From Patescibacteria group bacterium (GTDB taxonomy: Bacteria; Patescibacteriota; Patescibacteriia; Patescibacteriales; WJLG01), in the NCBI GenBank assembly GCA_028716485.1, contig JAQUPS010000001.1, positions 11,935 to 75,934 of the forward strand: a stretch of 64,000 nucleotides of DNA, written 5' to 3'. Each line of letters starts with the position of its first letter. Within the stretch, counting starts at the first letter, position 1. A program made the position numbers and the translations under genes. The notes beneath the pieces were generated by a model. It did not search any database and had not been told where the DNA came from. It was given only the letters and a program-made list of their open reading frames with translations. Of this stretch, positions 4,850 through 63,010 are shown piece after piece.

Positions 4850-5004
4850 TCCCTCCTTGTTATTGGGGGAAGTCTTAATGATTAGTTAAACTTATATCCA
4901 ATATAACATTAAAAAATGTGACAGTCAACTATCGGAAGTCAGATGTCAGATATCAGAAGTCGGATATCTTATTTCCAACATCCGACATCAGATATCTGAA
5001 ATCC

Positions 5005-5024
5005 CTGCCTGCCGGCAGGCAGGC
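5005..5024. repeat. 20-bp perfect GC palindrome CCTGCCTGCCGGCAGGCAGG (copy 1 of 4)
   Basis: Exact string. Embedded in a hairpin-rich spacer (4915-5070) that also holds a terminator-like AAACCGGCC...GGCCGGTTTTTGTTTT. Confidence 0.9.
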
Positions 5025-6723: not shown

Positions 6724-7209
6724 TTAACGGCTTTTCAAATCATTTATAGCGCTAATGGCGATGGCCAGCGCATCAGCGGCATCGTCCGGCTTGGGTATTT
6801 CTTTCAAGTTCAAAAGCAGTTTGACCATTTTCTGCACTTGCGCCTTTTCCGCCCGGCCATAGCCGGAAATCGTCTGCTTGACCTGCAAAGGAGTGAGTTC
6901 GACAATCGGCACTTTATTTTTCCGGCAAGCCAGAAGAATGACGCCGCGAGCCTGGCCGACAATGATCGCTGTCTTGGCATTATTTTGAAAAAACAATTCT
7001 TCCACGGCGGCGAGCGCCGGCCGGTATTTTTTGATTATTTTTTCCAATTCATCGTTGAGCGTTTCCAGCCTGGATGCCATCGGCATTCCGGCCTTGGTCT
7101 TTATCGAACCGTAAGAGACGCAGGAAATTTTTCCGCCCGCGCCTTTTTCTATAACGCCAAAGCCGGTGTCAGCGATGCCGGGGTCGATGCCAAGTATCAT
7201 TTTAGACAT
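6724..7209 (-). CDS. ruvC: Crossover junction endodeoxyribonuclease RuvC
   Basis: ILGIDPGIADTGFGVIE, catalytic-acid pattern, C-terminal DDAADALAIAIS. Confidence 0.9.
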   Translation of the reverse strand: MSKMILGIDPGIADTGFGVIEKGAGGKISCVSYGSIKTKAGMPMASRLETLNDELEKIIKKYRPALAAVEELFFQNNAKTAIIVGQARGVILLACRKNKVPIVELTPLQVKQTISGYGRAEKAQVQKMVKLLLNLKEIPKPDDAADALAIAISAINDLKSR

Positions 7210-8658: not shown

Positions 8659-11079
8659 TCACCTCTTCGCCCCCGAATACGCGATCGCTCGCACAATATC
8701 CCATTCTCGGGCCGTGGCCGGAGTCCGATGATAAATGAAGCGGAAAGATTTGATGGCGGCTTTTTCGCTGTTAATATTCCGGGCGGCCGGCCTTAGGCCG
8801 TAGGCCATGATGGTAACGGCGGCATTGTCGTGCGTATTATTCATGTCCGGATTTCTGCCATAGACAATCTTGAAATTAATTTTGGCCCGGGCTTCGGCGG
8901 TGGCGCTTCTTTGGGTCGGCCAGCGGCCATTGCCGATTTTTACCACATCCTGCCAATCCAATTCCGAGCCGGGCATCCGGCCAAAAGCTGACAAGAAAGA
9001 AGCGATTGAACCGGCGCGCTCCCCTGCTCCCAAAATTAAAGTTGTCGGCGTCCCGGACTGGATAAAATTGGCGATAATTCTTTTCTGCGCGTCAGATTGC
9101 GACGGAGCTTCGACGATAAGCTTGGCATAAGAAGTTTGCGCGCCGGAAGACAAAGAAGCATAAGTTGTCCGGGAAATTATCAAGCCGGCTTCGCTCAAAG
9201 ATATCTGATTAACCGTAGCCGAGGAAGCGCCAATCAAAGTTGCCGGAGTGGAAATGGAATTTTTATTTTCTTGATTGGTAACGGCAGGCGCGGCAGCAAT
9301 CGGAGTTACAACAGGATTCGCCGGAGGCGCAACCACTGGTGGAACGACTGACGCGGCATTTCCTTCTGAACTTCCGCTGCCGGAACCGCTGCTCCCCGAA
9401 GAACTTCCCGAACTTCCGCTGCCGGAAGAACCGCCGCTGACGGGCGGGGTGACCGCCGGCGCGGGCGGAGGAGTTGTTTCGGCCGGCGGAGTAATCGTCC
9501 CTGAAACATATTCGTAAGCGCCGATGTCCCAGGCCGAACCTTGCGGACGGGAAACATCATTTTTATCATTGCTGAAACCGGAAATTGCCTGTCCGGCATC
9601 AATGGCGGCGCTGCCGGCTTGCAGGCGCAAATCCATCTGCTGGCAATTCAATGGATACTCCGAAGTGTCGATAAATTTAATCGAATCGAGCGAAGAAAAA
9701 ATCAAACCATGCGCTTCATAACCCTGCTTCTGCCAATCGGCGAAATTCCAATTTCCCCAAGGATTCGCCCGCGTCACGTATCTGTCCGCTTGCGGTACGT
9801 AAGCGGCGTTATAATCCATTTGTAAATTTAACAAATCCTGAGCGTCGTTGTCGTAAGTCATCGCCCCGGATGCAGCAATCAGATTATTTCGGATATCATT
9901 GCCCCCGCCGGAAGCCAGGGAAACTCCGGCGGCGCGCGTCGAATAAATCGTATTGTTGTAAAATTTCGTGCCTTGCGAAGTCCAATTAAATCCGACCGTG
10001 ATATAGCTGTGCGGATTGATAAAAACATTATTGCGGATTATTGTATGGTCGGCGTAAGACAAAAATATCATCGCCGTGCCGCCATAGCCGTGATTGGTAA
10101 AATCAATATTATTGTAAAAAAGATTTCCTTCGACGATATTGCCGGCCGGCCGCGCGTAAGTCGCGTCGCTGTCCCCGCCTCGCCTGATGAAAATAAAATC
10201 CGTATGCGGCGGATCGACTTTGGTATCGCCGTAAAAATTCTGGTCGTATTGATAGATATCGTGGATGGAATTGCCGCGCAAAATATTTCTGACCGAAGCG
10301 ATCAGGTGATCGGGCGCGACATCGATCCCCCAGGTGATATAATCATGGATATTATTATTTTCAATCACGCAGTCCTGCGCGCCGGCCAAAGCTATGCCCG
10401 TGCCGCCGATTTTGGTTATTTCGTTGCCGGAAATTTCACAGTCGCTGGTTCGCAAAAAACCGATGCCTTCGCCTTGCGGAGTGATCGATCCGCCATTCTG
10501 CCAATAACCGTTATCGTGGATATAGCAACCGGCAATAGTGATGTGATCGGAAGTATCGGCAAAATTAATGCCGATTCCCGAAGCCCAGGGCGCTGGCGCG
10601 TTAACTCCCATATTCCTGATTTCAAAAGAATTTATTTCCACATAAGACCGGACATTGGAAGATTTAAAACCGAACATCAATGTTCCGCCGCCGTCAATTA
10701 TCGCCTTTCCCGTTCCCCAAGCGCCACTGGAATTGCCGTCATAGACAATCGGATTGCCGGACGTTCCGCTCCAATTAATGTTTATCTGCCCGGAATAGAC
10801 GACGCCGCCCTTGAAAATAATTTCATCGCCGGCTTGCGGAGTTTTGCTCAAAGAAATCCCGGCGGCATTCGGATCGCCCGGACAATGTTTCCAAGCAGCG
10901 TCGATTGAGGTTCCGGGGTTGGCATCATCGCCGCTGGTAAAATCAACATAATAAGTCGCGCCCGAAGCGGCCGAGGCTTTGGGCGAGTAAATTATTAAAA
11001 ATATAAATATAAAACTTAGAAGAAAAAACGCTTTTAACCAAATATTTTTAGCTATTTGTCTGCTTGAATTTTTAATCAT
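8659..11079 (-). CDS. Large secreted/surface protein: signal peptide, right-handed parallel beta-helix (pectate-lyase-like repeats), Gly/Ser-rich linker, C-terminal domain of unknown function
   Basis: Repeated NNNIHD / GNSIHD / GNEITKIGGTGI beta-helix rungs; linker SGGSSGSGSSGSSSGSSGSGSGSS; 806 aa. Confidence 0.7.
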   Translation of the reverse strand: MIKNSSRQIAKNIWLKAFFLLSFIFIFLIIYSPKASAASGATYYVDFTSGDDANPGTSIDAAWKHCPGDPNAAGISLSKTPQAGDEIIFKGGVVYSGQININWSGTSGNPIVYDGNSSGAWGTGKAIIDGGGTLMFGFKSSNVRSYVEINSFEIRNMGVNAPAPWASGIGINFADTSDHITIAGCYIHDNGYWQNGGSITPQGEGIGFLRTSDCEISGNEITKIGGTGIALAGAQDCVIENNNIHDYITWGIDVAPDHLIASVRNILRGNSIHDIYQYDQNFYGDTKVDPPHTDFIFIRRGGDSDATYARPAGNIVEGNLFYNNIDFTNHGYGGTAMIFLSYADHTIIRNNVFINPHSYITVGFNWTSQGTKFYNNTIYSTRAAGVSLASGGGNDIRNNLIAASGAMTYDNDAQDLLNLQMDYNAAYVPQADRYVTRANPWGNWNFADWQKQGYEAHGLIFSSLDSIKFIDTSEYPLNCQQMDLRLQAGSAAIDAGQAISGFSNDKNDVSRPQGSAWDIGAYEYVSGTITPPAETTPPPAPAVTPPVSGGSSGSGSSGSSSGSSGSGSGSSEGNAASVVPPVVAPPANPVVTPIAAAPAVTNQENKNSISTPATLIGASSATVNQISLSEAGLIISRTTYASLSSGAQTSYAKLIVEAPSQSDAQKRIIANFIQSGTPTTLILGAGERAGSIASFLSAFGRMPGSELDWQDVVKIGNGRWPTQRSATAEARAKINFKIVYGRNPDMNNTHDNAAVTIMAYGLRPAARNINSEKAAIKSFRFIYHRTPATAREWDIVRAIAYSGAKR

Positions 11080-13549: not shown

Positions 13550-13593
13550 TTGCCCCTCCCTTGTTTTATATCATTAATGAAAAGAACTGGAAC

Positions 13594-13755
13594 CAGAACC
13601 CATCTCAAAAATAATCTCCGGCTCGTTTTCGGTCTTTTTTGGCTGCAAAATCCGAAAATTTCGTCAGTATAGCCCGCTATTCCTCCTCAATTTTCGGATT
13701 TTTCGCCTAAAAAATCCGCGAAAACGACCAGAAGCTATTTTTGAGATGGGTTCTG
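13594..13755. repeat. 162-bp nested inverted repeat (20-bp perfect outer arms CAGAACCCATCTCAAAAATA, 14-bp perfect inner arms AAAATCCGAAAATT); candidate MITE or structured RNA
   Basis: Outer arms at 13594-13613 and 13736-13755; inner arms at 13648-13661 and 13689-13702; 27-nt loop. Confidence 0.7.
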
Positions 13756-13893
13756 ATTATTTTATTCTTAAACTGAAAAAATATCAAGAGCAAAAAATCA
13801 CGTAACCCATATCACACAACACGTAACGGTACTAAAAATATTTTCTTGACAATTTTAATTTTTTTTCTTCCGGCGCAATGAGCAGATTTTTTT

Positions 13894-13984
13894 GTTACGT
13901 GTTACGTGTTACGTGTTACGTGTTACGTGTTACGTGTTACGTGTTACGTGTTACGTGTTACGTGTTACGTGTTACGTGTTACGT
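13894..13984. repeat. Tandem heptamer array, 13 x GTTACGT, abutting the stop codon of the 13984..14838 gene
   Basis: Exact 7-nt periodicity over 91 nt. The + ORFs MLRVTCYV... in the track are translation artefacts of this array. Confidence 0.95.
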
Positions 13985-16815: not shown

Positions 16816-16857
16816 TTCGTATATCGTATGTCGTATATCGTATTTCGTATATCTCGA
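16816..16857. repeat. Heptamer array TACGA[AT/CA]A x5 running into the rpsT start codon
   Basis: Gene sense: ATACGAAATACGATATACGACATACGATATACGAAAATTATG. Confidence 0.85.
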
Positions 16858-16931
16858 CATAAATTATATTAATATTATTTTTTCATTTTGAGATTTTAAT
16901 TTTACATTCTCTTGTCTGGCTGCTGGGAATT

Positions 16932-16951
16932 CCTGCCTGCCGGCAGGCAGG
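16932..16951. repeat. CCTGCCTGCCGGCAGGCAGG palindrome (copy 2 of 4), between rpsT and tRNA-Pro
   Basis: Exact string flanked by GGAATT/GGGAAC. Confidence 0.9.
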
Positions 16952-17006
16952 GAACCCAATCGGCTTGTCTTCTTGCCAGGAACAACAAAAATTAATTTAC
17001 AACCTG

Positions 17007-17077
17007 TCGGGCTGCTGGGAATTGAACCCAGTCTACATGCTCCCAAAGCACGCGTACTACCGGTATACGACAGCCCG
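17007..17077 (-). tRNA. tRNA-Pro (anticodon UGG)
   Basis: Acceptor CGGGCTG/CAGCCCG, anticodon loop TTTGGGA, T-arm CTGGG-TTCAATT-CCCAG; manual fold. Confidence 0.7.
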
Positions 17078-17537: not shown

Positions 17538-17611
17538 TGGGCAATGATGGAATCGAACCATCGACCTCGTCATTATCAGTGACGCGCTCTAGCCATCTGA
17601 GCTAATTGCCC
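17538..17611 (-). tRNA. tRNA-Ile (anticodon GAU)
   Basis: GGGCAAT-TA-GCTC-AGATGGCTA-GAGC...CTGATAA...GATGG-TTCGATT-CCATC-ATTGCCC-A. Confidence 0.85.
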
Positions 17612-17739
17612 TTCGTCCGCCGTAGCCTTGGCGGAGGCGGACTGCCCGCCTATATCAGTCTTATGGATACAAAAAATTGCCCCCATAAAGCTGATGGTAA
17701 TATAACAGAAGATTTTAAAAAAGACAAGGCCTGGCGCGG

Positions 17740-19357: not shown

Positions 19358-20737
19358 TTAATTTTTATTTAAACTTTTATAGATCAGTCCGATTAAAATC
19401 CAAAAAAATAAAATGCCGAAAGGCAAGCTCCAGAGATAATGGTCAAACATCATCATTATAACCAAAGCAACCAGGATAGACAAGCTTAAAATATTATTTT
19501 TTTTCCATGATTGCAAGAATAAATATATTAGCAGGGCGGCGAAAAAAAACAAGCCGAAAATTCCGATTTCCGCCCAGACGAGCAAGAAAGCATTATGCAC
19601 GGGCTGTAAATAATACCAGGGCCGCTTCAAGTCGCTGCTTGACAGCGCTTTGGTGTAATTGCCGATGCCTGAGCCGAACAGCCAATTTTTTTCAATTATT
19701 TTTTGCGAATCAGTCAGATACATTTCCCTTTCTGAAAAAGATTTTTGCTCCAATCGGGCAGCGCCGACAGCGCGGGTGATAAATAAATTCTGGTAAGTGA
19801 AAAAAATCACTCCGGATAAAATTCCTGCTAAAATCATCACCAGCCCCAGCCGTTTCAGCGCCGGCCAATCCTTCTTAAAAATAATCATCGCCAAAAATAT
19901 GACAATGCCAACCGCCAAGGCCAAAAACGCGGAGCGGGAAAAAGTGAAAAGCAAGGCGGTAAATAAAAGAAAGAATAAAAGATAAAAAATAAAAAATTTT
20001 TTATTTTTTATTTTTTCTTTTTTAATTTCTTCTTTTTCCAAATAACCGCTAATGAAAATGTAAATAATGATTATTAAGCTCAATGCCAAAACTCCGCCAA
20101 GTATGTTCGGGTGATCAAGCGAACCGTAGGCGCGGAGCCAGCGCTCGGCAACGCCGTCTGAACCGGTAGTTTCAATCACTGACGCGCCCAAATCGCCCGG
20201 CAAATGCGCCGCCAATCCCAGCCATTTAAAAGCAAAAGTTCCTTGGTTTAAGAATTGCCAAATCGCCAAACCGCTCTGGATTAACAGGCCGGAAAAAAAA
20301 GCGATTGCCAATTTGATATTATCATATTCGGTCTTGACTATCAGCCAAAACAAGCCCAGCCCCAGCAAGAATAAAACATAGCGATAAGCCGCCAAAACCA
20401 AATCCGGCGCGAAAAATATGGAAATAAAAACAAACAAATCCAGCCCGGACAAAATAATTAATATTCCCCTCCTCGGGAGGGGTGGCCGCGCCGCGCGGAC
20501 GGGGTGGGTTATAATCGTAGTCTCGATCTGTCCCCCCTTCTTCTCTCGCCACGACAAAATAAAAAATAAAATCAACAACCCGATCAATAAAATATCCGTG
20601 CCGTATAAACTTATCGTCCCGTATTCCCAATCGCCGCGATTCAGCCAGCCCGGGCGTAAAATCAATTTCGTCTGCCAGGGCAAGAGGAAAACAAAAAGAT
20701 AAAGGCCATATTCTAATATTTTTTGAATTTTTTTCAT
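19358..20737 (-). CDS. O-antigen ligase/polymerase-family (Wzy_C-like) polytopic membrane protein
   Basis: About 10 TM helices with a periplasmic loop containing HNAFLLVWAEIG, a Wzy_C-like pattern. Confidence 0.6.
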   Translation of the reverse strand: MKKIQKILEYGLYLFVFLLPWQTKLILRPGWLNRGDWEYGTISLYGTDILLIGLLILFFILSWREKKGGQIETTIITHPVRAARPPLPRRGILIILSGLDLFVFISIFFAPDLVLAAYRYVLFLLGLGLFWLIVKTEYDNIKLAIAFFSGLLIQSGLAIWQFLNQGTFAFKWLGLAAHLPGDLGASVIETTGSDGVAERWLRAYGSLDHPNILGGVLALSLIIIIYIFISGYLEKEEIKKEKIKNKKFFIFYLLFFLLFTALLFTFSRSAFLALAVGIVIFLAMIIFKKDWPALKRLGLVMILAGILSGVIFFTYQNLFITRAVGAARLEQKSFSEREMYLTDSQKIIEKNWLFGSGIGNYTKALSSSDLKRPWYYLQPVHNAFLLVWAEIGIFGLFFFAALLIYLFLQSWKKNNILSLSILVALVIMMMFDHYLWSLPFGILFFWILIGLIYKSLNKN

Positions 20738-20782
20738 AAAAATCTCAATTTTACCTGCCGGCAGGCAGGCAGGAATTTTAAA
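20738..20782. repeat. Left copy of a ~44-bp element containing the GC palindrome CCTGCC(TGCC)GGCAGGCAGG
   Basis: aaaatctcaattttaCCTGCCGGCAGGCAGGCAGGaattttaaaac; inverted relative to the copy at 21958..22003. Confidence 0.8.
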
Positions 20783-20794
20783 ACAACTTAAAAT

Positions 20795-21826
20795 TTAGAT
20801 TTGCGATTTTAAAATTCTATTATTAAATTCTTCCCTGAAAAATTCCCTCCTGTCATTTTCATGAAATTTCAGGATATTATCAGCGATGATAACGCCGGGG
20901 CCGGAGCGGCGGCCTGACATTTTTTTCATTTGAATTTTCCTGGCCAGCGTTTCCAAACAGGCGCCAATGAAAGAATCAAACCACCAAGAATTTATTTTTT
21001 TCTCTAACGCCGCCAACCGATTGTCTTTTACAATTTTCGTCTGATTGGCGACGATAGGGAGAATATTGGGAAAATAATTATTAAGCCAAACATTAGCCTG
21101 CCAAAATAAATCATAACACTCTTGCCCGTAAATAGGCTTCAAAAATGCCAGCCAGTAGGCCAAATAAGGATCTGCAACGGCCGCTGGCTCGCCATCTTTT
21201 GCGGACTTTAAGGCAATTTTTTCCAAATTAAGATTATCTTCGGTAATATAAAAACTCAAGCAGATCCGATTGGCGATTTTTTTGCCATGCCGGCGCAAGC
21301 GAAAAAGATGCAAAGCCGCCGTTACTAAAGCGCGGCCAAGCCACATTCTCCCTTGTTCTAAAACAATAAAAAAATCAATGTCTGATTCGGGCCGATAATA
21401 AAAATTATTGCAGAGCGCAATCATCTTAACGCCCGGGATAAAATGCAATAGCCAAGCCGCGCGCTTAGCAATCTTAAATTTACTTTCCGCCAAAGAAACA
21501 AATTCCCGCCGTTTTTCTATCAACTCCTCTCGCCCTGACAAAAAATAGAAACCATTTTTTTCTTTGTCATCCCGAGCGTAGGCCGCCGCGGCCGAAGCCG
21601 AGGGATCCCTTTTTTCTCCGATAGCGCTTTCAGGCGGAACGAAAGGGATTCCTCCGCTCCGCGCGAGGCGCGCTTCGGTCGGAATGACAAAAGAAGAAAG
21701 AATATTTACTGTTTCCCCCAACTCCGCGCGCACCGGCAAAAACCGCCAGATTTCCATGGCGGTCAACGGATAATCGAAAATATCCAGAAAAATCAGGGAT
21801 TTTATAATATCTCGTTGCTTTATCAT
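20795..21826 (-). CDS. Hypothetical protein (possible nucleotidyltransferase-like core ESDIDFFIVLE) carrying an in-frame GC-rich palindromic insertion
   Basis: 343-aa ORF. The segment encoded by 21562-21693 is Ala/Pro/Arg-rich and corresponds to a TIR-bounded element. Confidence 0.55.
   Translation of the reverse strand: MIKQRDIIKSLIFLDIFDYPLTAMEIWRFLPVRAELGETVNILSSFVIPTEARLARSGGIPFVPPESAIGEKRDPSASAAAAYARDDKEKNGFYFLSGREELIEKRREFVSLAESKFKIAKRAAWLLHFIPGVKMIALCNNFYYRPESDIDFFIVLEQGRMWLGRALVTAALHLFRLRRHGKKIANRICLSFYITEDNLNLEKIALKSAKDGEPAAVADPYLAYWLAFLKPIYGQECYDLFWQANVWLNNYFPNILPIVANQTKIVKDNRLAALEKKINSWWFDSFIGACLETLARKIQMKKMSGRRSGPGVIIADNILKFHENDRREFFREEFNNRILKSQI
21562..21693. mobile_element. RPE-like palindromic element (~131 bp, 17-bp terminal inverted repeats CTTTGTCATCCCGAGCG / CGGTCGGAATGACAAAAG) inserted in-frame in a CDS
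   Basis: GC-rich, multiple internal palindromes (AGGGATCCCT, CCGCGCGAGGCGCGC). A solo TIR-like copy TTTGTCATCCTGAACGCCGCGCGA lies at 21838-21861. Confidence 0.55.
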
Positions 21827-21957
21827 TTTTTATTTGTCATCCTGAACGCCGCGCGAAAAATCTGTTTTATGCCAAGCAATTCAAAATTTTAAAATCACAA
21901 ATCTAAATTTTAAAATAAATCAAAAATTACAAATTTAAATTTTTATTTTGAAATTTA

Positions 21958-22003
21958 TTTTAAAATTCCTGCCTGCCGGCAGGCAGGTAAAATTGAGATT
22001 TGG
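21958..22003. repeat. Right (inverted) copy of the ~44-bp CCTGCCTGCCGGCAGGCAGG-containing element
   Basis: ttttaaaattCCTGCCTGCCGGCAGGCAGGtaaaattgagatttgg is the reverse complement of the left copy at 20738..20782. Confidence 0.8.
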
Positions 22004-22007
22004 AATT

Positions 22008-23183
22008 TTATTCTTCCCCTTTCGGCCTTTCCAATTCCAGCGCTTCGATTTTTGATTCCTCGCCCGTGATGCGGATGACGTCTTTATCGACTTTCTTGAA
22101 TTCTTTATAGGCCGAGTTGTAATGATTAACCGTAACGCATAAAGAATTTCCGAGCTTCTGAAAATACTCGTCATAGGAATTCAGATGCCGGCCGAGCTTT
22201 TCGACATTGGCCTGAATTTCCTTGGCAGTTTCCTCTATCTTCATCGCTTTCAAGCCTTGCAAAACCGTTTGCAAATAAGCCAGAAAAGAAGTGGGCGAAA
22301 CGATAATCACTTTCTTGTCGCGGAAAGCGTATTCGATCAAATCGCGCGTATTGATTTTTACCGCCCCGACTTTATTGATGAGCAAATCATAATAGATTGC
22401 CTCGGAAGGAATGAACATAAAGGCGAAATCCATCGTGCCCATTTCCGGCTTGATATATTTGGAAGTCTCGTCAATGCGATTTTTTAAATCCTGCCGGAAA
22501 ATCTTTTCCAAATTTTCCCGCTCAACCGCATCGGTGGCGTCCAGAATCCGCTGATAATTTTCCAAAGAAAATTTGGCATCGATCGGAATGATTTTGTCTT
22601 TCACGAAAACCGCCGCATCAACGATTAAATCCGCGTTGCCCGCCTTGTCCTTGCCCAGTTTGTATTGCATCTCGTAAGCGCCGGGCGGCAGGACATTTTT
22701 CAAAGTTTCTTCCAGAAAATATTCGCCCAAGACGCCGCGCTGTTTGGGATTTTTCAGAATATCCTGCAAGTTCTGCAATTGGCCGGAAAAATTGATCACC
22801 TGCTTGTTGGTCTCATCCAGTTTGGCCAATTTTTCCGAAACCTCGGTGATGACTTTCTGCGACTGCGCGTGCATTTCCATCATCATCTTGTTCGCCTGGC
22901 CGGTAACGCCTTGCATCAGCCCGGCGGTTTTGCCGAACTGGTCTTGCGTGGTTTTGTAAGCTTCAGAAAGTTTGGCATCCAGCGCCTTGCGCATTTCCTC
23001 GTTCTGCGTTGCCAAATTTCCCAAACGCTCCATCATTACGGCGATTTTCTCGTCGCCTGAACCGCTTTTTTTTCTCAGCAACAGATAAATTATAATTACC
23101 ACTCCTGCCAGCAGTAAAATCGGAAATAAATTATCCATATAAATCAAATAAAAAATTAATGTTTTATTACCTGATTTTATCAT
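22008..23183 (-). CDS. rmuC: DNA recombination protein RmuC
   Basis: N-terminal TM, coiled coil, RmuC core RGVLGEYFLEETL...IPIDAKFSLENY. The true start may be the internal Met near 23138. Confidence 0.8.
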   Translation of the reverse strand: MIKSGNKTLIFYLIYMDNLFPILLLAGVVIIIYLLLRKKSGSGDEKIAVMMERLGNLATQNEEMRKALDAKLSEAYKTTQDQFGKTAGLMQGVTGQANKMMMEMHAQSQKVITEVSEKLAKLDETNKQVINFSGQLQNLQDILKNPKQRGVLGEYFLEETLKNVLPPGAYEMQYKLGKDKAGNADLIVDAAVFVKDKIIPIDAKFSLENYQRILDATDAVERENLEKIFRQDLKNRIDETSKYIKPEMGTMDFAFMFIPSEAIYYDLLINKVGAVKINTRDLIEYAFRDKKVIIVSPTSFLAYLQTVLQGLKAMKIEETAKEIQANVEKLGRHLNSYDEYFQKLGNSLCVTVNHYNSAYKEFKKVDKDVIRITGEESKIEALELERPKGEE

Positions 23184-27692: not shown

Positions 27693-27695
27693 AAA

Positions 27696-27767
27696 AATGC
27701 TAAATGATGAGTGCTAAATGCTAAATTAAATAAAAAATTCAGCATTCATCATTTAGCATTTAGCATT
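27696..27767. repeat. Palindromic AATGCTA-heptamer element (copy 2) between the NUDIX start and the cca stop
   Basis: aatgctaaatgatgagtgctaaatgctaaatt...tcagcattcatcatttagcatttagcatt. Confidence 0.8.
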
Positions 27768-29256: not shown

Positions 29257-29364
29257 AGTTAATAAAATCTCAATTTAAAATTTTAAAATAAATCAAAATA
29301 TCTAAATTATAAATTCTTAAATTTCTGATTTGAAATTTTTTTTAAAATTTAAAATTGTGATTTG

Positions 29365-30367: not shown

Positions 30368-30724
30368 TTACTTCTTTCTATCTATTTTATTCCTAATTGC
30401 CGCAAATATCAAAACAAGCTCGTGAGCTTCTTGCCAAAGCAATCTTAGTCTACACTTTATCCCTTCGTCAACTATGGCGCAAGCCAGCATTTCAATCCAA
30501 TATTTTGTTTCCCGCGCCTCCTTGATACAAATGCAAATTTTATTCCTGAAATCTCGATCAGAACTTCCGCCATTGGCTTCGTGATAATTGGCTCCGACGC
30601 TTGTCGCCGACCTAATTAATTGGCTGGCAATATTTCTATTTAAATCACTTAACCTTAAAGAATTTAACAAAATAATTATTTCTCGGCCAAACTCCTTGGT
30701 TCTGTTCTCTAAATCATAAATCAT
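30368..30724 (-). CDS. Four-helix-bundle protein (the family first described as the 23S rRNA intervening-sequence protein)
   Basis: 118 aa; ATSVGANYHEANGGSSDRDFRNKICICIKEARETKYW matches the family signature; own SD GGAGGCT. Confidence 0.7.
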   Translation of the reverse strand: MIYDLENRTKEFGREIIILLNSLRLSDLNRNIASQLIRSATSVGANYHEANGGSSDRDFRNKICICIKEARETKYWIEMLACAIVDEGIKCRLRLLWQEAHELVLIFAAIRNKIDRKK

Positions 30725-32273: not shown

Positions 32274-33377
32274 TTATTTTAAAATTTGAATTTGAGATTT
32301 TAAGATTTTAATAATTGCCTCGTTCGCTCCTTCCTTGAACAACGCCTTAATATTTTTTCCGAGCGCTTCCCGCTCCCCTGCGTTATCCAGCAAAAATTTT
32401 ATCGCCGCCACGAACGAATCGCCGGTCAAAATTTTCTGGTTCAAGACCACGGCGGCGTTTTTTTCCACGAGCAAGGCGGCGTTGTCTTCCTGATGAGAGT
32501 CGGGCATTGGAATGACGATGGCCGGCTTGCCGGCCGAAGAAAGTTCGGCAAGCGTGCCGATACCGGCGCGGCAAACAACTAAATCGGCCGCGCTTAACGC
32601 CTCGGCCATTTCTTCGGAATTTAAAAATTCGTAAGGGTGATAATTTTCATGGCGCTTGGTAATCATCTTTCCTTTGCCGGTCGAATGGATTATCTGACAA
32701 AAAGTAACCAGATTTTCCAAGCCCGCTTCCACCAATCTGTTTATTCCTTCCGCTCCCGTTCCTCCGCCGACGACGAAAACAACCGGCAAATCATTTTTTA
32801 AATTAAACTTTTCCGATATTTTTAATTTTTCATTTTTAATTTTTAATTGAGTCGGGTTCCCCGTCCAGACAGCTTTTTTTCCGTAATCGGCCAATGATTT
32901 TTCAAAAGTCACGGTGATGACGCGGGCAAACGGCGCCATTAGGCGATTAGCCAATCCGGGGCGGACATCCATCTGATGAATAATAATCGGAATCCGCAAA
33001 ATCCAGGCCGCCCAAACTACCGGCACGGCGACAAAACTGCCGGCCGACATTACCAGATCCGGCTTGACTTTGAGTAAAATAAAAAAGGATTGCCAAAAAG
33101 CCAGCTTAATTTTGGCCACGTCCAGAAAATTCCGCCAATCAAAATAACGGCGTAATTTTCCGGCCAAAATCGCCCGATACGGCAGTCCCGCTTCCTTGAC
33201 CATCTGTTTTTCAATACCTTCTTTCGTGCCGAGAAATAAAAAATCAAATCCGCCCTTGTCCGCCGCAGCCTTGGCGAAGGCGGATTGCGCGCGCAAATCT
33301 TCGGCAATGGCCAATAAAGGCGAAACCGAACCGGCCGTTCCCCCGCCGGTCAATATTATTTTCTTATGATTATCCAT
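32274..33377 (-). CDS. murG: Undecaprenyldiphospho-muramoylpentapeptide beta-N-acetylglucosaminyltransferase
   Basis: GGGTAGSVSPLLAIAEDL N-terminal motif, GT28 C-terminal domain. Confidence 0.9.
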   Translation of the reverse strand: MDNHKKIILTGGGTAGSVSPLLAIAEDLRAQSAFAKAAADKGGFDFLFLGTKEGIEKQMVKEAGLPYRAILAGKLRRYFDWRNFLDVAKIKLAFWQSFFILLKVKPDLVMSAGSFVAVPVVWAAWILRIPIIIHQMDVRPGLANRLMAPFARVITVTFEKSLADYGKKAVWTGNPTQLKIKNEKLKISEKFNLKNDLPVVFVVGGGTGAEGINRLVEAGLENLVTFCQIIHSTGKGKMITKRHENYHPYEFLNSEEMAEALSAADLVVCRAGIGTLAELSSAGKPAIVIPMPDSHQEDNAALLVEKNAAVVLNQKILTGDSFVAAIKFLLDNAGEREALGKNIKALFKEGANEAIIKILKSQIQILK

Positions 33378-36435: not shown

Positions 36436-36547
36436 TGTTATGTGTTATGTGTTATGTGTTATGTGTTATGTGTTATGTGTTATGTGTTATGTGTTATGTG
36501 TTATGTGTTATGTGTTATGTGTTATGTGTTATGTGTTATGTGTTATG
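36436..36547. repeat. Tandem heptamer array, 16 x TGTTATG, between the 36553..36975 gene stop and the mraY upstream region
   Basis: Exact 7-nt periodicity over 112 nt. A related array GTTGCGT GTTGCGT GATGTGT GTTACGT abuts the mraY start (36273-36310). Confidence 0.95.
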
Positions 36548-47617: not shown

Positions 47618-47645
47618 CGTAACACGTAACACGTAACACGTAACA
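47618..47645. repeat. Heptamer array 4 x GTGTTAC (gene sense) running directly into the GT4 start codon (…GTTACGAAATG)
   Basis: + strand cgtaacacgtaacacgtaacacgtaaca. A second degenerate array TGTGTTA TGCGATA TGTGTTA CGTAAAG lies at 47663-47690. Confidence 0.9.
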
Positions 47646-47691
47646 CAAATCAAAAAAATATTATGTGTTATGCGATATGTGTTACGTAAAG

Positions 47692-58072: not shown

Positions 58073-58753
58073 CGCTTGTTACCAAACGTATGGACTATAC
58101 CACCATCCGGTTTTAACCGGAGGTCAACGTGTTAGCAATGCTCTTCGCATCACTCTCTCCCTGTGCGGGATCAGTCTCTACGGGGTTAAATTATGCCTCT
58201 TCCTTTTTTTGGAGTAGTTAAGTTCCCTGAACTTATCTATCATACCAGCCAATTTTTCAAAATCTTTTTGATCTCTGACGTTTTCTTTCATCTCAAATAT
58301 TTTAATCATCAATTCCGCCTGACGTCTTTTTAAGATCAAAAAAGGTTTTACTTGGGACAGAAAATCGACTATCTCATCTTTTTTATTGATGACATATTCC
58401 ATTATTCCGTCTTTTCGTTCTCTCATATAACCGGCTCCGGCAAGAGCGCAAACTCTCGCGAAGTTTTCTTTCTCTTTTTTGGCTTGGAAAAATGCGATGC
58501 AAGGAGAAATCTGGAATCCGAACCGATAGGTCGGATTTGGTTTCAATCTTACATAGATGCTTCCATCGCCATCGAGAAAACCGGCTAAATAAGCCAAATT
58601 TTTGACTGTGATGTTTTTAGACATAATCAACTTCCCTCGGTATTATCCTAACATGTGACAGGTTATTTTGCAATAACTAATGCCAGGACTTCACCGATAT
58701 GAGTTGACTTTTTCGAATTCGATTACTCGAATAAGCCGCCAAATTGACGGTTT
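58073..58753 (-). mobile_element. Putative group I intron B in 23S (about E. coli 2586-2593) carrying a LAGLIDADG ORF
   Basis: Exon CGAGCTGGGTT | intron | ...ATGCGTAAGACAGGTTGG exon (homolog of TAGAACGTCGTGAGACAGTTCGG); 74-nt exon between introns A and B matches E. coli spacing. Confidence 0.5.
58178..58630 (-). CDS. LAGLIDADG homing endonuclease (intron-encoded)
   Basis: LAYLAGFLDGDGSIYV; 150 aa; the C-terminus ...HNLTP parallels ...LGLTP of the first endonuclease. Confidence 0.85.
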   Translation of the reverse strand: MIMSKNITVKNLAYLAGFLDGDGSIYVRLKPNPTYRFGFQISPCIAFFQAKKEKENFARVCALAGAGYMRERKDGIMEYVINKKDEIVDFLSQVKPFLILKRRQAELMIKIFEMKENVRDQKDFEKLAGMIDKFRELNYSKKRKRHNLTP

Positions 58754-58772
58754 GAACCCAGCTCGCGTGCCT

Positions 58773-58803
<31 letters not shown>

Positions 58804-59356
58804 GCTTCTACACCCCCAGGATGAGACGGGCCGACATCGAGGTGCCGAACCTGGTCGTCGCTGTGGACGCTTGGACCAGACTAGCCTGTTATCCCTAGAG
58901 TAGCTTTTATCCGATGAGCTTCCACCATCCTATATTGGATGGTCGGATCACTAAGTTCTGCTTTCGCAACTGCTCGACGTGTCAGTCTTGCAGTAAAGCC
59001 GGCTTGTGCCTTTGCGCTATCTCCCGGGTTTCCATTCCGGGATAGCCGACCTTTGTAAACGCCTCAGTTACTTTTTATGAGGCATCCGCCCCAGACAAAC
59101 TACCCACCAGACACTGTTCCCCGGAAGGATTCACTTCCTAGGGTAAGAATTTAGAACAAACAAGGGTGGTATCTCACTGGTGCCCGAAGGCTCCCACCTA
59201 TTCTGAACATGCGTATCCCAAATCCAATATCAAGTTATAGTAAAGCTTCATAGGGTCTTTTCGTCCAGCTATGGTTAATGAGCATCTTCACTCATCCTGC
59301 AATTTCGCCGAGTTCTTCGTTGAGACAGCGCCCAAGTAGTTACGCCATTCAAGCAC

Positions 59357-59388
<32 letters not shown>

Positions 59389-59395
59389 GCACCTT

Positions 59396-60430
59396 CTTAA
59401 TATTTCTATTAAGCTTGGACTATTTCTTATCCCAAATTAGGGATCTCAATGTTTAGTCTCTGAGGATTAAAAATTAATCCTGCGCGTTTGCCCCGTGTAT
59501 TTTCAGATTTTTACCGCCAACTTAATGGCTTGGTACTGAAAATCTTTTGAGGATTTCCACGCATTTTATTGAGTATTTATAGACAACTATAACTTTCGTT
59601 ATAGCCAGGCAGCGGATTTATATGAATCGTCCCAGTCTTTCTGCAATCTATTATTTTCAAATAAATTGCAAAACCTTAGGACGATTCATTAATGTTAAAC
59701 CTCTTTTAGATTTCCCGAGTCTTCGGGACTTTATGTTTCCATAAAGATCGGACTATATCATTCACGGCTTTCCGGACGGAAAGCGCGCGATTCGGCGTAT
59801 AGTCTCTGGGGATTATCTACTCGCGATTGTTCAAAATCGCTTTGGTTGTATTTTCTCTTTCTTCCGCGGCCGGCATTTAATTCTTCTCTTAGCTCAACGA
59901 TCTTTTTTAAACCGTCTTCATTTAAATGCTCTTTGCCGAAAACTAATTCGGCGATCCGGCAGAAGATAGAAAAATTCTTCTTTTTCGTTTGGGAAAGGAA
60001 ATAAAATTTCCGAAAAAACGGAATCACTTTCTCTTGAATGGAAAGCGGGTTGCTGACTACAAACATATGCAATCCGTCGCGCCGTTCAACTAATCTGCCG
60101 CAGCCTAAAATCTTTTTAAACTGCGATAAGATATAACTTTCCTTTTGGGAAACGTTAAATGTCAGAACGACTTGCCAGCCCATTTTATGGTCCAGCCTCT
60201 TTCTCAAAGAGACATTGAAACTTCCTTCGCCATCGGTAAAACCGGCAAAATAGTAACCTATTTCCGGTTTTATGTTGTTTAACCAATTTTGATTCATAGA
60301 TTCTTTCCTGCGGATTGTCCGCCAATGACTTTAAAAGTCATGTTAACTTTTTGATTTTTACTGCGGATTAAATTTCCCACGAGTACAAAAAGTTTGGGCG
60401 GATGTTCCCGCAAATAGCCAAATTTTTTAA
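59396..60430 (-). mobile_element. Putative group I intron C in 23S (about E. coli 1917-1923 region, domain IV) carrying a LAGLIDADG ORF
   Basis: Exon ...GATAACTATGAAC | AT-rich intron | AAGGTGCTAAGCGAAATTCCTTGTCGGGTAAGTTCCGAC exon. Confidence 0.5.
59758..60297 (-). CDS. LAGLIDADG homing endonuclease (intron-encoded)
   Basis: YYFAGFTDGEGSF motif; 179 aa. Confidence 0.8.
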   Translation of the reverse strand: MNQNWLNNIKPEIGYYFAGFTDGEGSFNVSLRKRLDHKMGWQVVLTFNVSQKESYILSQFKKILGCGRLVERRDGLHMFVVSNPLSIQEKVIPFFRKFYFLSQTKKKNFSIFCRIAELVFGKEHLNEDGLKKIVELREELNAGRGRKRKYNQSDFEQSRVDNPQRLYAESRAFRPESRE

Positions 60431-61726
60431 CTACAATTTTGTTCATAGTTATCGCCGGCGTTCATCCACGCTTCAGTTCAGGGCTTCGCCTTGCGGCTAA
60501 CCCCTCGCCTTAACGTTTGGACACTGGCCAGGCGTCACTCCCTATACATCCTCTTACGAGTTAGCAGAGAGCTGTGTTTTTGGTAAACAGTCCCTTGGGC
60601 ACTTTAGCTGCGGCCTATCTTGCGATAGGCAGGCCTTCTTGCGAACTTACGGCCGATTTTTTGCCGAGTTCCTTAACGAAAATTCTCTCGTGCACCGTTA
60701 GTCTTCTCGACTTGCAAACCTGTGTCGGTTTTAGTACGGTTGCCGTTTCCTTAACCCTAGAGATTTTTCTGGGAAGCTCCTCCCCTCAAATTGACGATCC
60801 ATTGCTGGACCATCTGCAAACGGCTCCTTGAAATATCGCTCCGGATTTGCCTGGAGCTATTCTTGAAGCAATTAACGCATATACCAATATCGCGCTTGAG
60901 GTTCGAAACTTCGTTATCCCATCAGCAGAAACGGTAGTGCTGGAATATTAACCAGCTTATCCATCGGCTACGCCCCCATTACAAAGGCCTCGTCTTAGGA
61001 CCGACTAACCCTGGGCCGATTTACGTTGCCCAGGAAACCTTATGCTTTCGGTGGGCAGGGTTTTCACCTGCCTTTATGCTACTCATGCCAACATTCTCTC
61101 TTCTTGCCGCTCCACCACGTCTCGCGGCGTGACTTCAGCGCAGGCAAGAATGCTCCTCTACCGCTCCAAATAATTAAATTTGAAACCCGTATCTTCGGTA
61201 ATATGCTTAGCCCCGGTAAATATTCGGCGCGAAACAACTTGACTAGTGAGCTATTACGCTATCTTTAAAGGATGGCTGCTTCTAAGCCAACCTCCTAGTT
61301 GTCGCAGTCACGACACCACCTTTTACACTTAGCATATATTTAGGGACCTTAGATTACGATTTGGGCTGTTTCCCTTTTGACCGATGAAGCTTAGCCCCCA
61401 TGGTCTGACTCCCGAGTTATGTTGATTGGTATTCGGAGTTTGGTTAAGAGTAATATCTTGCGACTTACCCTCATTCAGTGCTCTACCCCCAATCATAAAC
61501 ACTCGAGGCTAGCCCTAAAGCTATTTCGAGGAGAACCAGCTATTGCCTAGTTCGATTGAAATTTCATCCCTAACCACAAATCATCCCCTAGTGTTGCACG
61601 GCTAGTGGGTTCGGTCCTCCATCCGTCTTTCGACGAACTTCAACCTGTCTGTGGTTAGATCACCAGGCTTCGGGTCTTATACATGCGACAAACGGGCTAT
61701 TAACCCTCGCTTTCACTACGCCTCCT

Positions 61727-61828
61727 CCCGCACCTTTTGCACAAACATCATTATTTATCATCGAATATAATGCTTATGATTATGTCAATAATTTTTATTA
61801 TCAACACCTTTTTTCAAAAGGTGCGGGA
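61727..61828 (-). other. 23S intervening sequence (IVS) in helix-25 region, ORF-less, bounded by CCCGCACCTTTTG / CAAAAGGTGCGGG
   Basis: AT-rich ~75-nt insert between inverted repeats; the following exon aligns to E. coli 23S around 600-700. Confidence 0.6.
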
Positions 61829-61961
61829 TTAGGCAAGCCGCATACAATAAACTCGTTGGCTCATTCTTCAATAGGCACGCCGTCACCCTGGCTTGCGCCA
61901 AGGCTCCGACTCCTTATAAGTATATGGTTTCAGGTACTATTTCAACTCCCTCACCGGGATG

Positions 61962-61998
<37 letters not shown>

Positions 61999-62334
61999 AT
62001 CATAAAAAGTATTTAGTCTTGGATCATAGTCGACCCGGATTCACGCGGGATTTCACGAGTCCCGCGCTACTTAAGAATAATAAAGACGGTTCAATGATAC
62101 TTGTCGCGTACGGGGCTATCACCCTCTTTGGCCAAGCTTTCCAGCTTGCTTCTGCTAAATGTCATCACATCCCGCTTCGTCCATCCCAAGGGACAAAATA
62201 TACTATTCTTACAACTACCCATGAACATGTGGACTTGGATCCTTCCTAACGCCATACCCGAAGGCACAACATTATTCAGTTCACGAGATTTAGACTGGTC
62301 CCCTTTCGCTCGCCACTACTTGGGGAATCATCCA

Positions 62335-62428
62335 GCACCTTTTGAACATAACAATTTATCTTAATAAATTTTTATTTTTCATAAAAATATTAAGAAAAAA
62401 TCGTAATGTTTTATTCAAAAGGTGCGGG
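62335..62428 (-). other. 23S IVS (domain I, about E. coli position 200), ORF-less, bounded by GCACCTTTTGAA / TTCAAAAGGTGC
   Basis: AT-rich insert replacing a short E. coli segment between GGAAAAGAAAT and GATTCCCC. Confidence 0.55.
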
Positions 62429-62489
62429 ATTTTTTATTAATTTCTTTTCCTCCGGCTACTAAGATGTTTCAGTTCACCGGGTAATCTAT

Positions 62490-62593
62490 CTCGCACCTTT
62501 TCGGCAGAGCAACTTTATTTTAAAACTTTTTCGAGTTTTATAAAAAGTTACTAAACAGTTGGAATTTCTTTTCAACTGCCGAAAAGGTGCGAG
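62490..62593 (-). other. 23S IVS in helix 9 (about E. coli 130-150), ORF-less, bounded by CTCGCACCTTTTCGGCAG / CTGCCGAAAAGGTGCGAG
   Basis: 18-bp perfect inverted repeat enclosing a 68-nt AT-rich insert; helix 9 is a classic IVS site. Confidence 0.6.
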
Positions 62594-63010
62594 ATCATCC
62601 TGTCTTCAACAGGATAGGTTTCCCCATTCGGAAATCTTCGGCTCAAAGGTTGCTTGCCACCTCCCCGAAGCTTATCGCAGGCTGCTACGTCCTTCATCGT
62701 CTTTTTATGTCAAGGCATCCACCATATACCCTTAATGAGATTTTCCCACATTCTTATCGCTAAGAATGTGTTTGCTCATTTTTACTTCTTGCTATATTTA
62801 ATAACTTTAAACTTTTTGAAGTTTATAGTTCATTAACCTTTTCTAGACTTCTTTTAGACCTCTTCTTTTTTTCTTTACCTCTTCGCCTCCCCCGTCGGGA
62901 GACGAAAATTATCTAAGTATTCAGTTGTCAAAGTTCTTTACGATAGCAGTATTTCTGAAAACAATTTTTAAAAAAATTACTTTCAGAATTCTAATATCAT
63001 TTTATAATTC

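Follow-up and report, generated by a model that had tools for sequence, protein, structure and literature searches.

We analysed a 64,000-nt stretch of DNA from a Patescibacteria group bacterium (contig JAQUPS010000001.1; hereafter the window), in which a gene on the reverse strand (20795–21826; hereafter the host gene) contains a palindromic segment in frame and lies between two copies of a 20-bp palindrome, CCTGCCTGCCGGCAGGCAGG (hereafter PAL). Our analysis indicates that the host gene is an ordinary, vertically inherited gene of Patescibacteria, and that two unrelated kinds of very small palindromic DNA lie in and around it: a composite in-frame element built of hairpin units that begin with GTCAT, and PAL, which has entered the flanking spacers as exact 20-nt insertions. 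We regard this account as probable, in one joint judgement on the ordinary gene, the in-gene element and the PAL insertions. The most interesting result lies outside the reading offered by a first-pass annotation of the window, which had seen a mobile cassette: both the letter-perfect 20-bp palindrome and the hairpin superfamily recur across phyla, inserted without duplication of the target.

The host gene and its conserved neighbourhood

The host gene is a Patescibacteria-conserved open reading frame (ORF) of 343 aa, whose product is identical to the NCBI hypothetical protein PHO56_00155 ('Patescibacteria group bacterium'). A Pfam search of the protein gave no match, and 363 homologues were found. 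Its AlphaFold model has a mean pLDDT of 81.7 and a pTM of 0.79. Outside the insert, weak matches to AadA/MNT nucleotidyltransferase folds (E about 0.02) agree with an SDIDFF motif that is invariant in the alignment, suggesting a nucleotidyltransferase-like core. The neighbours of the host gene are RmuC (22008–23183) and an O-antigen-ligase-family protein gene, Wzy_C (19358–20737), both likewise on the reverse strand. The window has a G+C content of 44% and a gene content of the Patescibacteria type.

The order RmuC–host gene–Wzy_C–M16 peptidase is kept in contigs L001 (with the near-identical L002 and L003), L180 and L181, whose proteins are 53–65% identical to that of the host gene (53–56% for L180 and L181). 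Contigs L001, L002 and L003 encode the closest ortholog, P0002 (65% identity by BLASTP, 74% in the alignment), and their gene order, SecA ... RmuC–gene–Wzy_C–M16 peptidase, is that of the window. In L001, the gene and Wzy_C overlap as TAATG, with no spacer and no palindrome between them, and PAL is not present at the corresponding flanking sites of the syntenic relatives.

A composite palindromic element inserted in frame

The segment at 21562–21693 (reverse strand) is 132 bp long, equal to 44 codons, is read in frame as FVIPTEARLARSGGIPFVPPESAIGEKRDPSASAAAAYARDDK, and is bounded by inverted repeats, as the first-pass annotation had described. It consists of two inverted 44-nt GTCAT hairpin units separated by a 35-nt spacer. 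Unit B, which is 5' on the coding strand (21645–21688, reverse strand), reads GTCATTCCGACCG-(GCGCG CCT CGCGC)-GAGCGGAGGAATCCC, its ATTCC stem being closed by GGAAT, and has 47 nt identical to contig L004. Unit A, its inverted partner (21566–21609, forward strand), reads GTCATCCCGAGCG-(GGCCG CCG CGGCC)-GAAGCCGAGGGATCCC, with an ATCCC stem closed by GGGAT. The central spacer and apical loop (21610–21644, reverse strand) include 30 nt that are missing from the L004 version in the alignment. Both units follow the consensus GTC-ATYCC-GASCG-(small G+C hairpin)-..GAGG-RAT-CCC, and the differences between them preserve pairing (ATTCC/GGAAT versus ATCCC/GGGAT, and GCGCG..CGCGC versus GGCCG..CGGCC). The predicted RNA fold of the segment has an energy of −71 kcal/mol (z = −5.2 versus shuffled controls), and its DNA fold a z-score of −3.65 against such controls; the z-scores that we cite for structural constraint are −5.2 and −4.3. 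A further unit at 21836–21862 (forward strand, GTCATCCTGAACGCCGCGCGAAAAATC), about 10 nt upstream of the ATG, had been listed as a solo terminal repeat in the promoter region. It is real, but it is a degenerate single GTCAT unit that has lost its closing stem (scored 'open'). The in-gene doublet and this solo unit are the only GTCAT units in the window.

The in-gene segment is an insertion. In the protein alignment, it is missing from the closest ortholog P0002 (L001), from P0009, P0011, P0016, P0028 and P0033, and from all more distant orthologs, whereas P0005 shares the same peptide and P0015 has a close variant; the ortholog comparison that had been proposed as a check thus came out in favour of an insertion in the closest and many other orthologs, but not in these two. 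In the DNA comparison, a like element is found at the same codon in the window, in L004 (with L182) and in L181 (..TTTT/GTCATTCCGA.....GGRATGACA/A..., slashes marking its ends). The same loop contains an unrelated doublet, of the TCCCCTCTCGAGAGGGG type, in L180 and no element in L001. Target-site duplications, which had also been suggested as something to look for, were found neither at PAL nor at the 132-bp element, which is flanked by no direct repeat in the window, L004 or L181. Residues 51–94, nearly the whole insert, form the only segment of the AlphaFold model with a pLDDT below 50 and lie between two confidently modelled domains; the model therefore places the insert peptide outside the folded core.

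For a wider survey of this loop, delimited by the anchors E[IV]WRF and GFYFL, we compared 76 orthologs. In its basal form it measures 24–34 aa, and about 27 of the 76 orthologs have expansions that fall into roughly eight or more unrelated peptide families, their assignment to palindromic-element peptides having been made by judgement. These families include VIPTEARLARSGGIP..LGMT, CHPRENGDP..LDSRLRGND, CHTGESRYP..DPGLRRDD, SPLERGAEPGEAGCV..PPLSRGE, PSREGWTAA..APLSRG and PLYKGELEGV..PPFVKGR, and ortholog P0031 has three elements in tandem. The absence of the segment from P0002 and most orthologs, the unrelated palindromic peptides at the same loop and the low-confidence model of this segment alone uphold the earlier suggestion of an in-frame insertion resembling a Rickettsia palindromic element (RPE).

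We propose that the composite element (two inverted 44-nt GTCAT units and their spacer) entered the linker that joins an N-terminal helical domain to the nucleotidyltransferase-like core, and that the solo unit just upstream of the start codon would be a decayed third unit. Because the length of the element is a multiple of three, it has no stop codon and the linker is tolerant, it would be translated without interruption into a disordered loop of about 44 aa, rich in Ala, Pro and Arg. Insertions in coding DNA would survive only where they preserve the frame and fall in tolerant loops, which would generate hot spots such as this linker.

Two other genes of the window contain palindromic DNA of a comparable kind. 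MurG (32274–33377, reverse strand) has an in-frame 11-aa insert, SAFAKAAADKG, relative to Pseudomonas aeruginosa MurG (PDB 3s2u); the corresponding DNA (33249–33299) is a G+C-rich palindrome, TCCGCCGCAGCCTTGGCGAAGGCGGA, of a type found a second time at 17606–17656, beside tRNA-Ile. In Wzy_C, a G+C-rich palindromic segment at 20458–20520 (CCCCTCCTCGGGAGGGG...) is read as ..THPVRAARPPLPRRG.. and adjoins a gap of 13 aa that arises when the protein is aligned with its L001 ortholog. A peptide of the same type is present in another loop of the P0005/L182 ortholog of the host gene.

The GTCAT hairpin superfamily

A pattern scan of viral contigs yielded a basic GTCAT form of 28 nt (GTCATCCCGAGCGCAGTCGAGGGATCCC) and longer forms with an extra hairpin nested in the loop. 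Units of the superfamily are 27–52 nt long and occur both singly and as inverted doublets, the latter in the window, L004, L162, L165, L170 and L178. In a sample of 132 GTCAT-initiated units, which includes 20 loci selected for the ATYCC stem types (two of six), the closing sequence was in 89 exactly the reverse complement of the unit's own 5-nt stem, versus 7.3 in a stem-swap control. This excess and the occurrence of six stem types (ATCCC, ATCCT, ATCGC, ATTCC, ATTCT and ATTGC) indicate that the GTCAT units form a structure-constrained superfamily.

GTCAT units are multi-copy in related contigs, with four in the 9-kb L181 and four in the 4-kb L182, and members of the superfamily are found in unrelated genes, spacers and phage ORFs. 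In the viral contig L164, two units (7010–7061 and 10646–10695) lie inside an ORF encoding an 895-aa phage protein and the large terminase gene; both ORFs stay open across the units, indicating that in-frame tolerance extends to phage genes. Like intragenic units are present in the related viral contigs L166, L173 and L179. The possibility that paired GTCAT units of viral contigs enclose a transposase was rejected, as the units lie inside large phage ORFs, one of which is the terminase, and no transposase adjoins the GTCAT units examined. Rfam searches at the gathering threshold and at E-values up to 1 detected nothing relevant to these elements.

The expectation that the in-gene element would recur elsewhere was borne out for the superfamily, but not for the exact subfamily. 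A scan of JGI metagenomes with a 28-mer of the exact subfamily found it only at the orthologous locus, so that in this lineage the subfamily itself is probably not repeated in high copy number, widespread as the superfamily is. A search with the 47-aa insert peptide as query gave zero candidates.

These data bear on an alternative in which the gene lineage had the 44-aa segment ancestrally, as a protein loop or mRNA structure under selection rather than as selfish DNA, and the orthologs without it have lost it. P0005/L004/L182 and P0015 have the same peptide and DNA at this codon, the shared nucleotides of the window and L004 elements are 97.5% identical (79 of the 81 aligned positions, the differences being loop indels) versus 73–80% for the flanking coding sequence, and the JGI scan detected the 28-mer nowhere else. 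This near-identity may reflect constraint at the nucleotide level, or recent acquisition by both lineages from a conserved source, and it keeps an acquired function of the segment in play. We nonetheless consider the ancestral loop improbable: the DNA is a two-unit palindrome of a superfamily whose other members lie in unrelated genes, in spacers and in phage ORFs, the segment is missing from the closest ortholog and from most of the rest, unrelated palindromic elements occupy the same loop in other orthologs, and AlphaFold assigns the segment no confident structure.

Exact insertion of a 20-bp palindrome in the window

PAL is present as an exact 20-mer at 5004–5023, 16932–16951 and 21968–21987, and a fourth copy at 20754–20773 is a register-shifted variant, CCTGCCGGCAGGCAGGCAGG, with two mismatches. 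The first-pass annotation had located all four sites but had taken the fourth for an identical copy, and its starts at 5005 and 20755 are each off by one. A search of the window allowing three or fewer mismatches gave five PAL matches, two of them overlapping on the fourth copy, versus 0.01 by chance.

At each of the four sites, removal of exactly 20 nt restores a recognisable sequence. The 5004 copy lies where two units of a heptamer array (..ATC units) meet, and its removal keeps the 7-nt register of the array, whereas removal of 19 or 21 nt breaks it. The 16932 copy lies in the T-loop of a partial duplicate of a tRNA-Pro 3' end (GGGAATT^GAACCC, the caret marking the insertion point), and its removal restores the T-arm GGGAATTGAACCC of the adjacent intact tRNA-Pro (17006–17077). 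The 20754 and 21968 copies interrupt a generic AT-rich spacer motif, AAATCTMAATTTTA^AATTTTAAAATAAAT, between its two AATTTTA heptamers, the former in the gene–Wzy_C spacer and the latter at the same motif position of the RmuC–gene spacer, and removal restores the motif. AAATCTMAATTTTA occurs nine times in the window versus 0.65 expected, and uninterrupted copies of the motif (AAATCTAAATTTTA AATTTTAAAATAAAT or close variants) are found at 29265 and 30320 on the forward strand and at 29363 and 30774 on the reverse strand. The motif copies that flank the host gene are thus the spacer motif plus 20 bp (AATTTTA^AATTTTA). In a viral contig, L149, removal of 20 nt likewise restores a canonical 72-nt tRNA-Met. 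PAL insertions are therefore exact and occur without target duplication. A 7-bp target-site duplication (AATTTTA-PAL-AATTTTA) was first suggested by 7-mer direct repeats (five exact versus 0.06 expected), but was rejected because the uninterrupted motif already reads AATTTTA AATTTTA and any position in a period-7 array gives the same signal.

The partial tRNA-Pro duplicate at 16909–16958 comprises the acceptor and T arms only and lies about 50 nt downstream of the real tRNA-Pro. Partial tRNA fragments with PAL near intact tRNAs are also present in L019 and L041, and a comparable 5' fragment is present in L156.

PAL copies might instead have evolved locally as functional hairpins, such as terminators or RNA-stability elements, rather than being inserted DNA. 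Three of the copies are intergenic, the hairpin is G+C-rich, and PAL lies 20 nt after the RmuC stop codon and 21 nt after that of the host gene. We consider this origin decidedly unlikely. A terminator scan calls neither PAL copy flanking the host gene because there is no T-tract (the tails are AATTTTAAAA and TAAAATTGAG), the 5004 copy adjoins a separate hairpin that is followed by a T-run, and PAL is also found inside tRNA sequences and long ORFs. Moreover, the presence of an identical 20-mer in many phyla (see below) cannot be convergence, because PAL was found in 35 IMG/VR viral stretches and two composition-matched control palindromes in 0 and 1. Secondary use of PAL as a hairpin after insertion is possible.

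Mirrored repeats around the host gene

The first-pass annotation had interpreted the two gene-flanking PAL copies as parts of 44-bp elements lying in inverted orientation exactly at the two ends of the gene. The inversion is genuine: 20740–20783 and the reverse complement of 21958–22001 are identical at 42 of 44 positions, and the likeness reaches on weakly to 77 nt at 78%. The placement is not, as one copy lies 21 nt beyond the stop codon of the host gene and the other 142 nt before its start codon, 20 nt beyond the RmuC stop codon.

The spacer motif is usually present as inverted pairs, either within one spacer (20740/20802, 21899/22001 and 29265/29363, forward/reverse) or bracketing a gene; the pair 30320/30774 brackets an ORF encoding 118 aa (30368–30724) without any PAL. 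In the gene–Wzy_C spacer (20740–20802), the motif AAATCTMAATTTTA forms an inverted pair (20740–20753, forward; 20789–20802, reverse) around PAL, and its inner arm overlaps the stop codon of the host gene. In the RmuC–gene spacer (21899–22001), the same inverted pair (21899–21912, forward; 21988–22001, reverse) is accompanied by PAL and an AT-rich inner palindrome (21906–21967). In both spacers, PAL would have entered the outer motif copy at the identical point (AATTTTA^AATTTTA) and without duplicating its target, which gives the mirrored 44-mers as a by-product. An AAATCTC variant is common to both PAL-bearing motif copies, which makes a single insertion, later copied by gene conversion, just as likely as two separate events.

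It is therefore very hard to see the host gene as the cargo of a small mobile cassette with the PAL-bearing 44-mers as its terminal inverted repeats. Such a cassette is suggested by the nearly identical inverted arms around a single gene, and a viral contig, L145, has a 1.4-kb segment between inverted PAL-bearing repeats. Nevertheless, the gene and both its neighbours are syntenic in relatives without PAL at these sites (L001/L002/L003, L180 and L181), the arms are made up of a generic spacer motif, uninterrupted at four other sites, and a 20-bp insert, the outside flanks (...TTCATAA and GGAATTT...) form no direct repeat, and the motif brackets other ORFs too.

PAL across phyla

Exact PAL was found in at least 120 stretches of a species-representative genome collection, from many phyla; by our own arithmetic, the expectation for one 20-mer in 596 Gb of uniform composition is below 1. 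Among the 80 listed titles, at least 24 are Patescibacteria of several classes and about 22 are Bacteroidota, including four cultured isolates. Other carriers among the matches listed are Omnitrophota, Planctomycetota/PVC, Gamma- and Deltaproteobacteria, Bdellovibrionales, Thermodesulfovibrionales and Chloroflexi. A perfect palindrome with a CCGG centre, derived mostly from metagenome-assembled genomes, might suggest that sequencing, assembly or library construction had produced it. Such an artefact is scarcely credible, because PAL is present in cultured isolates of Winogradskyella, Flagellimonas, Longitalea and Flavivirga (among them Winogradskyella echinorum KCTC 22026, Flagellimonas yonaguniensis 334s03 and Longitalea luteola) as well as in assemblies of long reads by many laboratories, long ORFs remain open across it, and no full match is present in the 72,556 plasmid records of PLSDB or the 50,697 cultured-phage records of INPHARED.

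The unit is sharply delimited and nearly invariant. Its 18-bp core ends in C and G in 35 of 36 occurrences, which defines a PAL unit of 20 bp. In 1.5 Mb of loci, we counted 170 exact copies and about eight with one mismatch, although these counts are biased to exact copies, for which the loci were chosen. The shifted variant of the 20754 copy is rare elsewhere (one stretch). The flanks are unrelated across about 165 sites, the sole signal being A at −1 and T at +1.

PAL also lies within other structured and coding sequences. It is nested in itself (L022 and L046), and other repeat units carry it in their loops (L053, L109 and L095); at L053 924–975 and L109 5430–5480 it occupies the apical loop of such units, including GTCATTGCGAGGAGCG-PAL-CAGCGACGAAGCAATC, and at L182 2829–2880 a PAL-like variant, GCCTGCCTACCGGACAGGCAGGC, does the same. 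These nestings suggest that different element families insert into one another. PAL is found in the D-loops of tRNA-like sequences in L019, L041, L089 and L156, that of L089 being an apparent tRNA with a TCT (Arg) anticodon on a truncated contig. In L149, PAL (2284–2303) lies in the variable loop of the otherwise canonical tRNA-Met, which ARAGORN still calls because PAL mimics a long variable arm. In long ORFs, PAL is mostly translated as xLPAGRQx. A Saccharibacteria FtsK with PAL has a YN..LPY linker of 15 aa versus 8 aa in its nearest orthologs, an addition of 7 aa or 21 nt. The GatB of L108, compared for a similar 7-aa insert, gives no clean case, because Thermotoga GatB natively has ..TGRQ.. 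at that position.

Taken together, PAL may be a 20-bp mobile DNA element that inserts without target duplication into spacers, tRNA genes, repeat units and conserved protein genes, and that is identical in Patescibacteria, Omnitrophota, Bacteroidota, Planctomycetota, proteobacterial lineages, Nitrospirota and phage contigs, as one of a larger cross-phylum set of hairpins to which the GTCAT superfamily also belongs; we put this forward tentatively, short of regarding it as the likelier outcome. Other short, perfect, G+C-rich palindromes are present in the flanks of PAL loci (L015, L020, L116, L066 and L009), for example TCCGCCAGCTGGCGGA in L015 and L020 and GGGACAGGTCGCGACCTGTCC in L116, and PAL may be one of a larger set. 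A full-text literature search retrieved no relevant paper with the PAL sequence, its half, LPAGRQ or six element-associated peptides.

A possible mechanism

The exact insertion without duplication, nesting, sharp ends, near-perfect copies, presence in phage contigs and lack of an adjacent transposase are the observations that any mechanism has to accommodate. The known mechanism most in keeping with them is the 'peel and paste' transposition of IS200/IS605 and REP-RAYT systems (repetitive extragenic palindromes and their associated tyrosine transposases), in which HUH/Y1 enzymes move single-stranded DNA with no target duplication and with seamless excision. By analogy, PAL and GTCAT elements might both move as single-stranded DNA hairpins through a cut-and-seal activity of this kind supplied in trans, a proposal that we find doubtful but worth stating. 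Such movement would account for the letter-perfect state of nearly all PAL copies, for the nesting of elements in one another's loops, and for their arrival in phage genomes. Gene conversion between pre-existing repeats probably contributes to spread within genomes, but it cannot explain insertions in unique coding sequence.

Several findings weigh against mobility of this kind. A tblastn search with IS200 and IS608 TnpA, using approximate queries, detected no Y1 transposase in the 64-kb window and gave a single hit (L012) in the 1.5 Mb of loci that carry PAL or GTCAT units. PAL is perfectly symmetric, without a guide or cleavage motif such as those of IS200/IS605 or REP elements, and its length of 20 bp means that insertions in coding sequence need one extra base. 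The flanks of PAL sites had a hairpin potential no higher than that of control positions nearby (flank-to-flank pairing energy was no better than in controls 400–900 nt away), so that the idea of PAL targeting hairpin loops, striking in individual cases, is anecdotal and was rejected. In addition, the JGI metagenomes yielded the exact in-gene subfamily at the orthologous locus alone, and its near-identity between lineages could consequently reflect purifying selection for a function instead of recent movement.

Comparison with known small elements

RPEs are palindromic elements of about 100–150 bp that are inserted in frame in unrelated genes and add a peptide compatible with the protein fold (PMC10969869). 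The in-gene element resembles them in its size of 132 bp, its frame and its position in a disordered inter-domain loop. It differs in host phylum, in being built of two inverted units from a hairpin superfamily that also occur singly, in belonging to a single-locus subfamily whereas RPEs have dozens of copies per genome, and in sharing its hot spot with many unrelated families; the likeness is one of behaviour. With these caveats, the data support the view that the element works like an RPE, but it cannot be filed as one, given the different taxon and the single-locus subfamily.

REP elements and their doublets (REPINs) share with the GTCAT units the short hairpin, a conserved 5' tag, covarying stems, inverted doublets and the lack of target-site duplication (PMC3116915, PMC3733652). 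However, the tag is (T)GTCAT here and GTAG or CGTC in REP elements, GTCAT units are often intragenic and translated whereas REP elements are extragenic, and GTCAT units are found in many phyla and phage contigs whereas REP elements are species-specific. No RAYT gene was seen in the window by tblastn with approximate queries. Miniature inverted-repeat transposable elements such as the QMITEs of Coxiella (PMC5896051) are likewise small, non-autonomous, bounded by terminal inverted repeats and sometimes fused in frame to ORFs, but the elements described here show no target-site duplication, and PAL is far below the usual size of that class.

G+C-rich hairpins also spread in A+T-rich genomes as the G+C clusters and double-hairpin elements of fungal mitochondria and the coding palindromes of Nematomorpha mitochondria, where they enter rRNA and protein genes and are read through (PMC6649704). 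For the elements of the window, no target duplication was seen. The mitochondrial families are organellar and lineage-specific, an insertion mechanism is suspected, and AT-rich target duplications occur in yeast.

For PAL, the closest resemblance appears to be to the small dispersed repeats (SDRs) of heterocystous cyanobacteria. As reportedly described by Elhai et al. in 2008, these are 21–27 nt long, mobile-looking, mutually nested and lineage-restricted, their genomes are said to be rich in heptanucleotide tandem repeats, and no known transposition mechanism is said to account for them. PAL is similarly a dispersed unit of 30 nt or less with sharp ends, variable flanks, filled versus empty sites and nested copies, and there are five cases in which its removal restores the original sequence (the four window copies and L149). 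It differs from SDRs in being a perfect palindrome that is letter-identical across phyla and viral contigs and that is also found in coding and tRNA sequences.

Other repeats of the window

The spacers of the window are mostly dominated by period-7 tandem arrays of many different heptamers, often as inverted pairs; (TGTTACG)x13 and (TGTTATG)x16, both with a 100% match, are examples, and arrays are located at 13893–13984, 36436–36547, 546–578/697–723, 4938–4968, 16817–16853, 27695–27767 and 47618–47646. They recall the heptanucleotide repeats (short tandemly repeated repetitive sequences, STRRs) of cyanobacteria, and the same period-7 architecture flanks PAL in other phyla (L054, L062, L105 and L125). 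An intergenic imperfect palindrome of a different kind (13591–13758) is 168 bp long, with 83-nt arms that are 71% complementary, and the RmuC–gene spacer of L001 (5400–5650) is filled by an AT/GC mosaic resembling it. The 23S rRNA gene (58484–62747) is 4264 nt long versus 2925 nt for the Rfam model, indicating about 1.3 kb of insertions.

Implications

For the annotation of these genomes, the case of the host gene teaches that mirrored repeats on either side of a gene are no sign of a cassette. If confirmed, the in-frame insertions would mean that the minimal-genome Patescibacteria tolerate many palindromic insertions in conserved genes, three of them in this window (the host gene, MurG and Wzy_C), with effects on gene calling, protein-family alignments and ideas on the origin of new loops. 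The presence of one identical 20-mer, and of the GTCAT superfamily, in phyla far apart and in phage contigs would, again if confirmed, point to horizontal spread of elements far below the size of any transposon with a known mechanism. PAL would then be the smallest and most widely shared mobile sequence described, and would point to an unrecognised, broadly distributed insertion and excision activity on DNA hairpins, a mechanism that is open to experiment because culturable Bacteroidota carry PAL.

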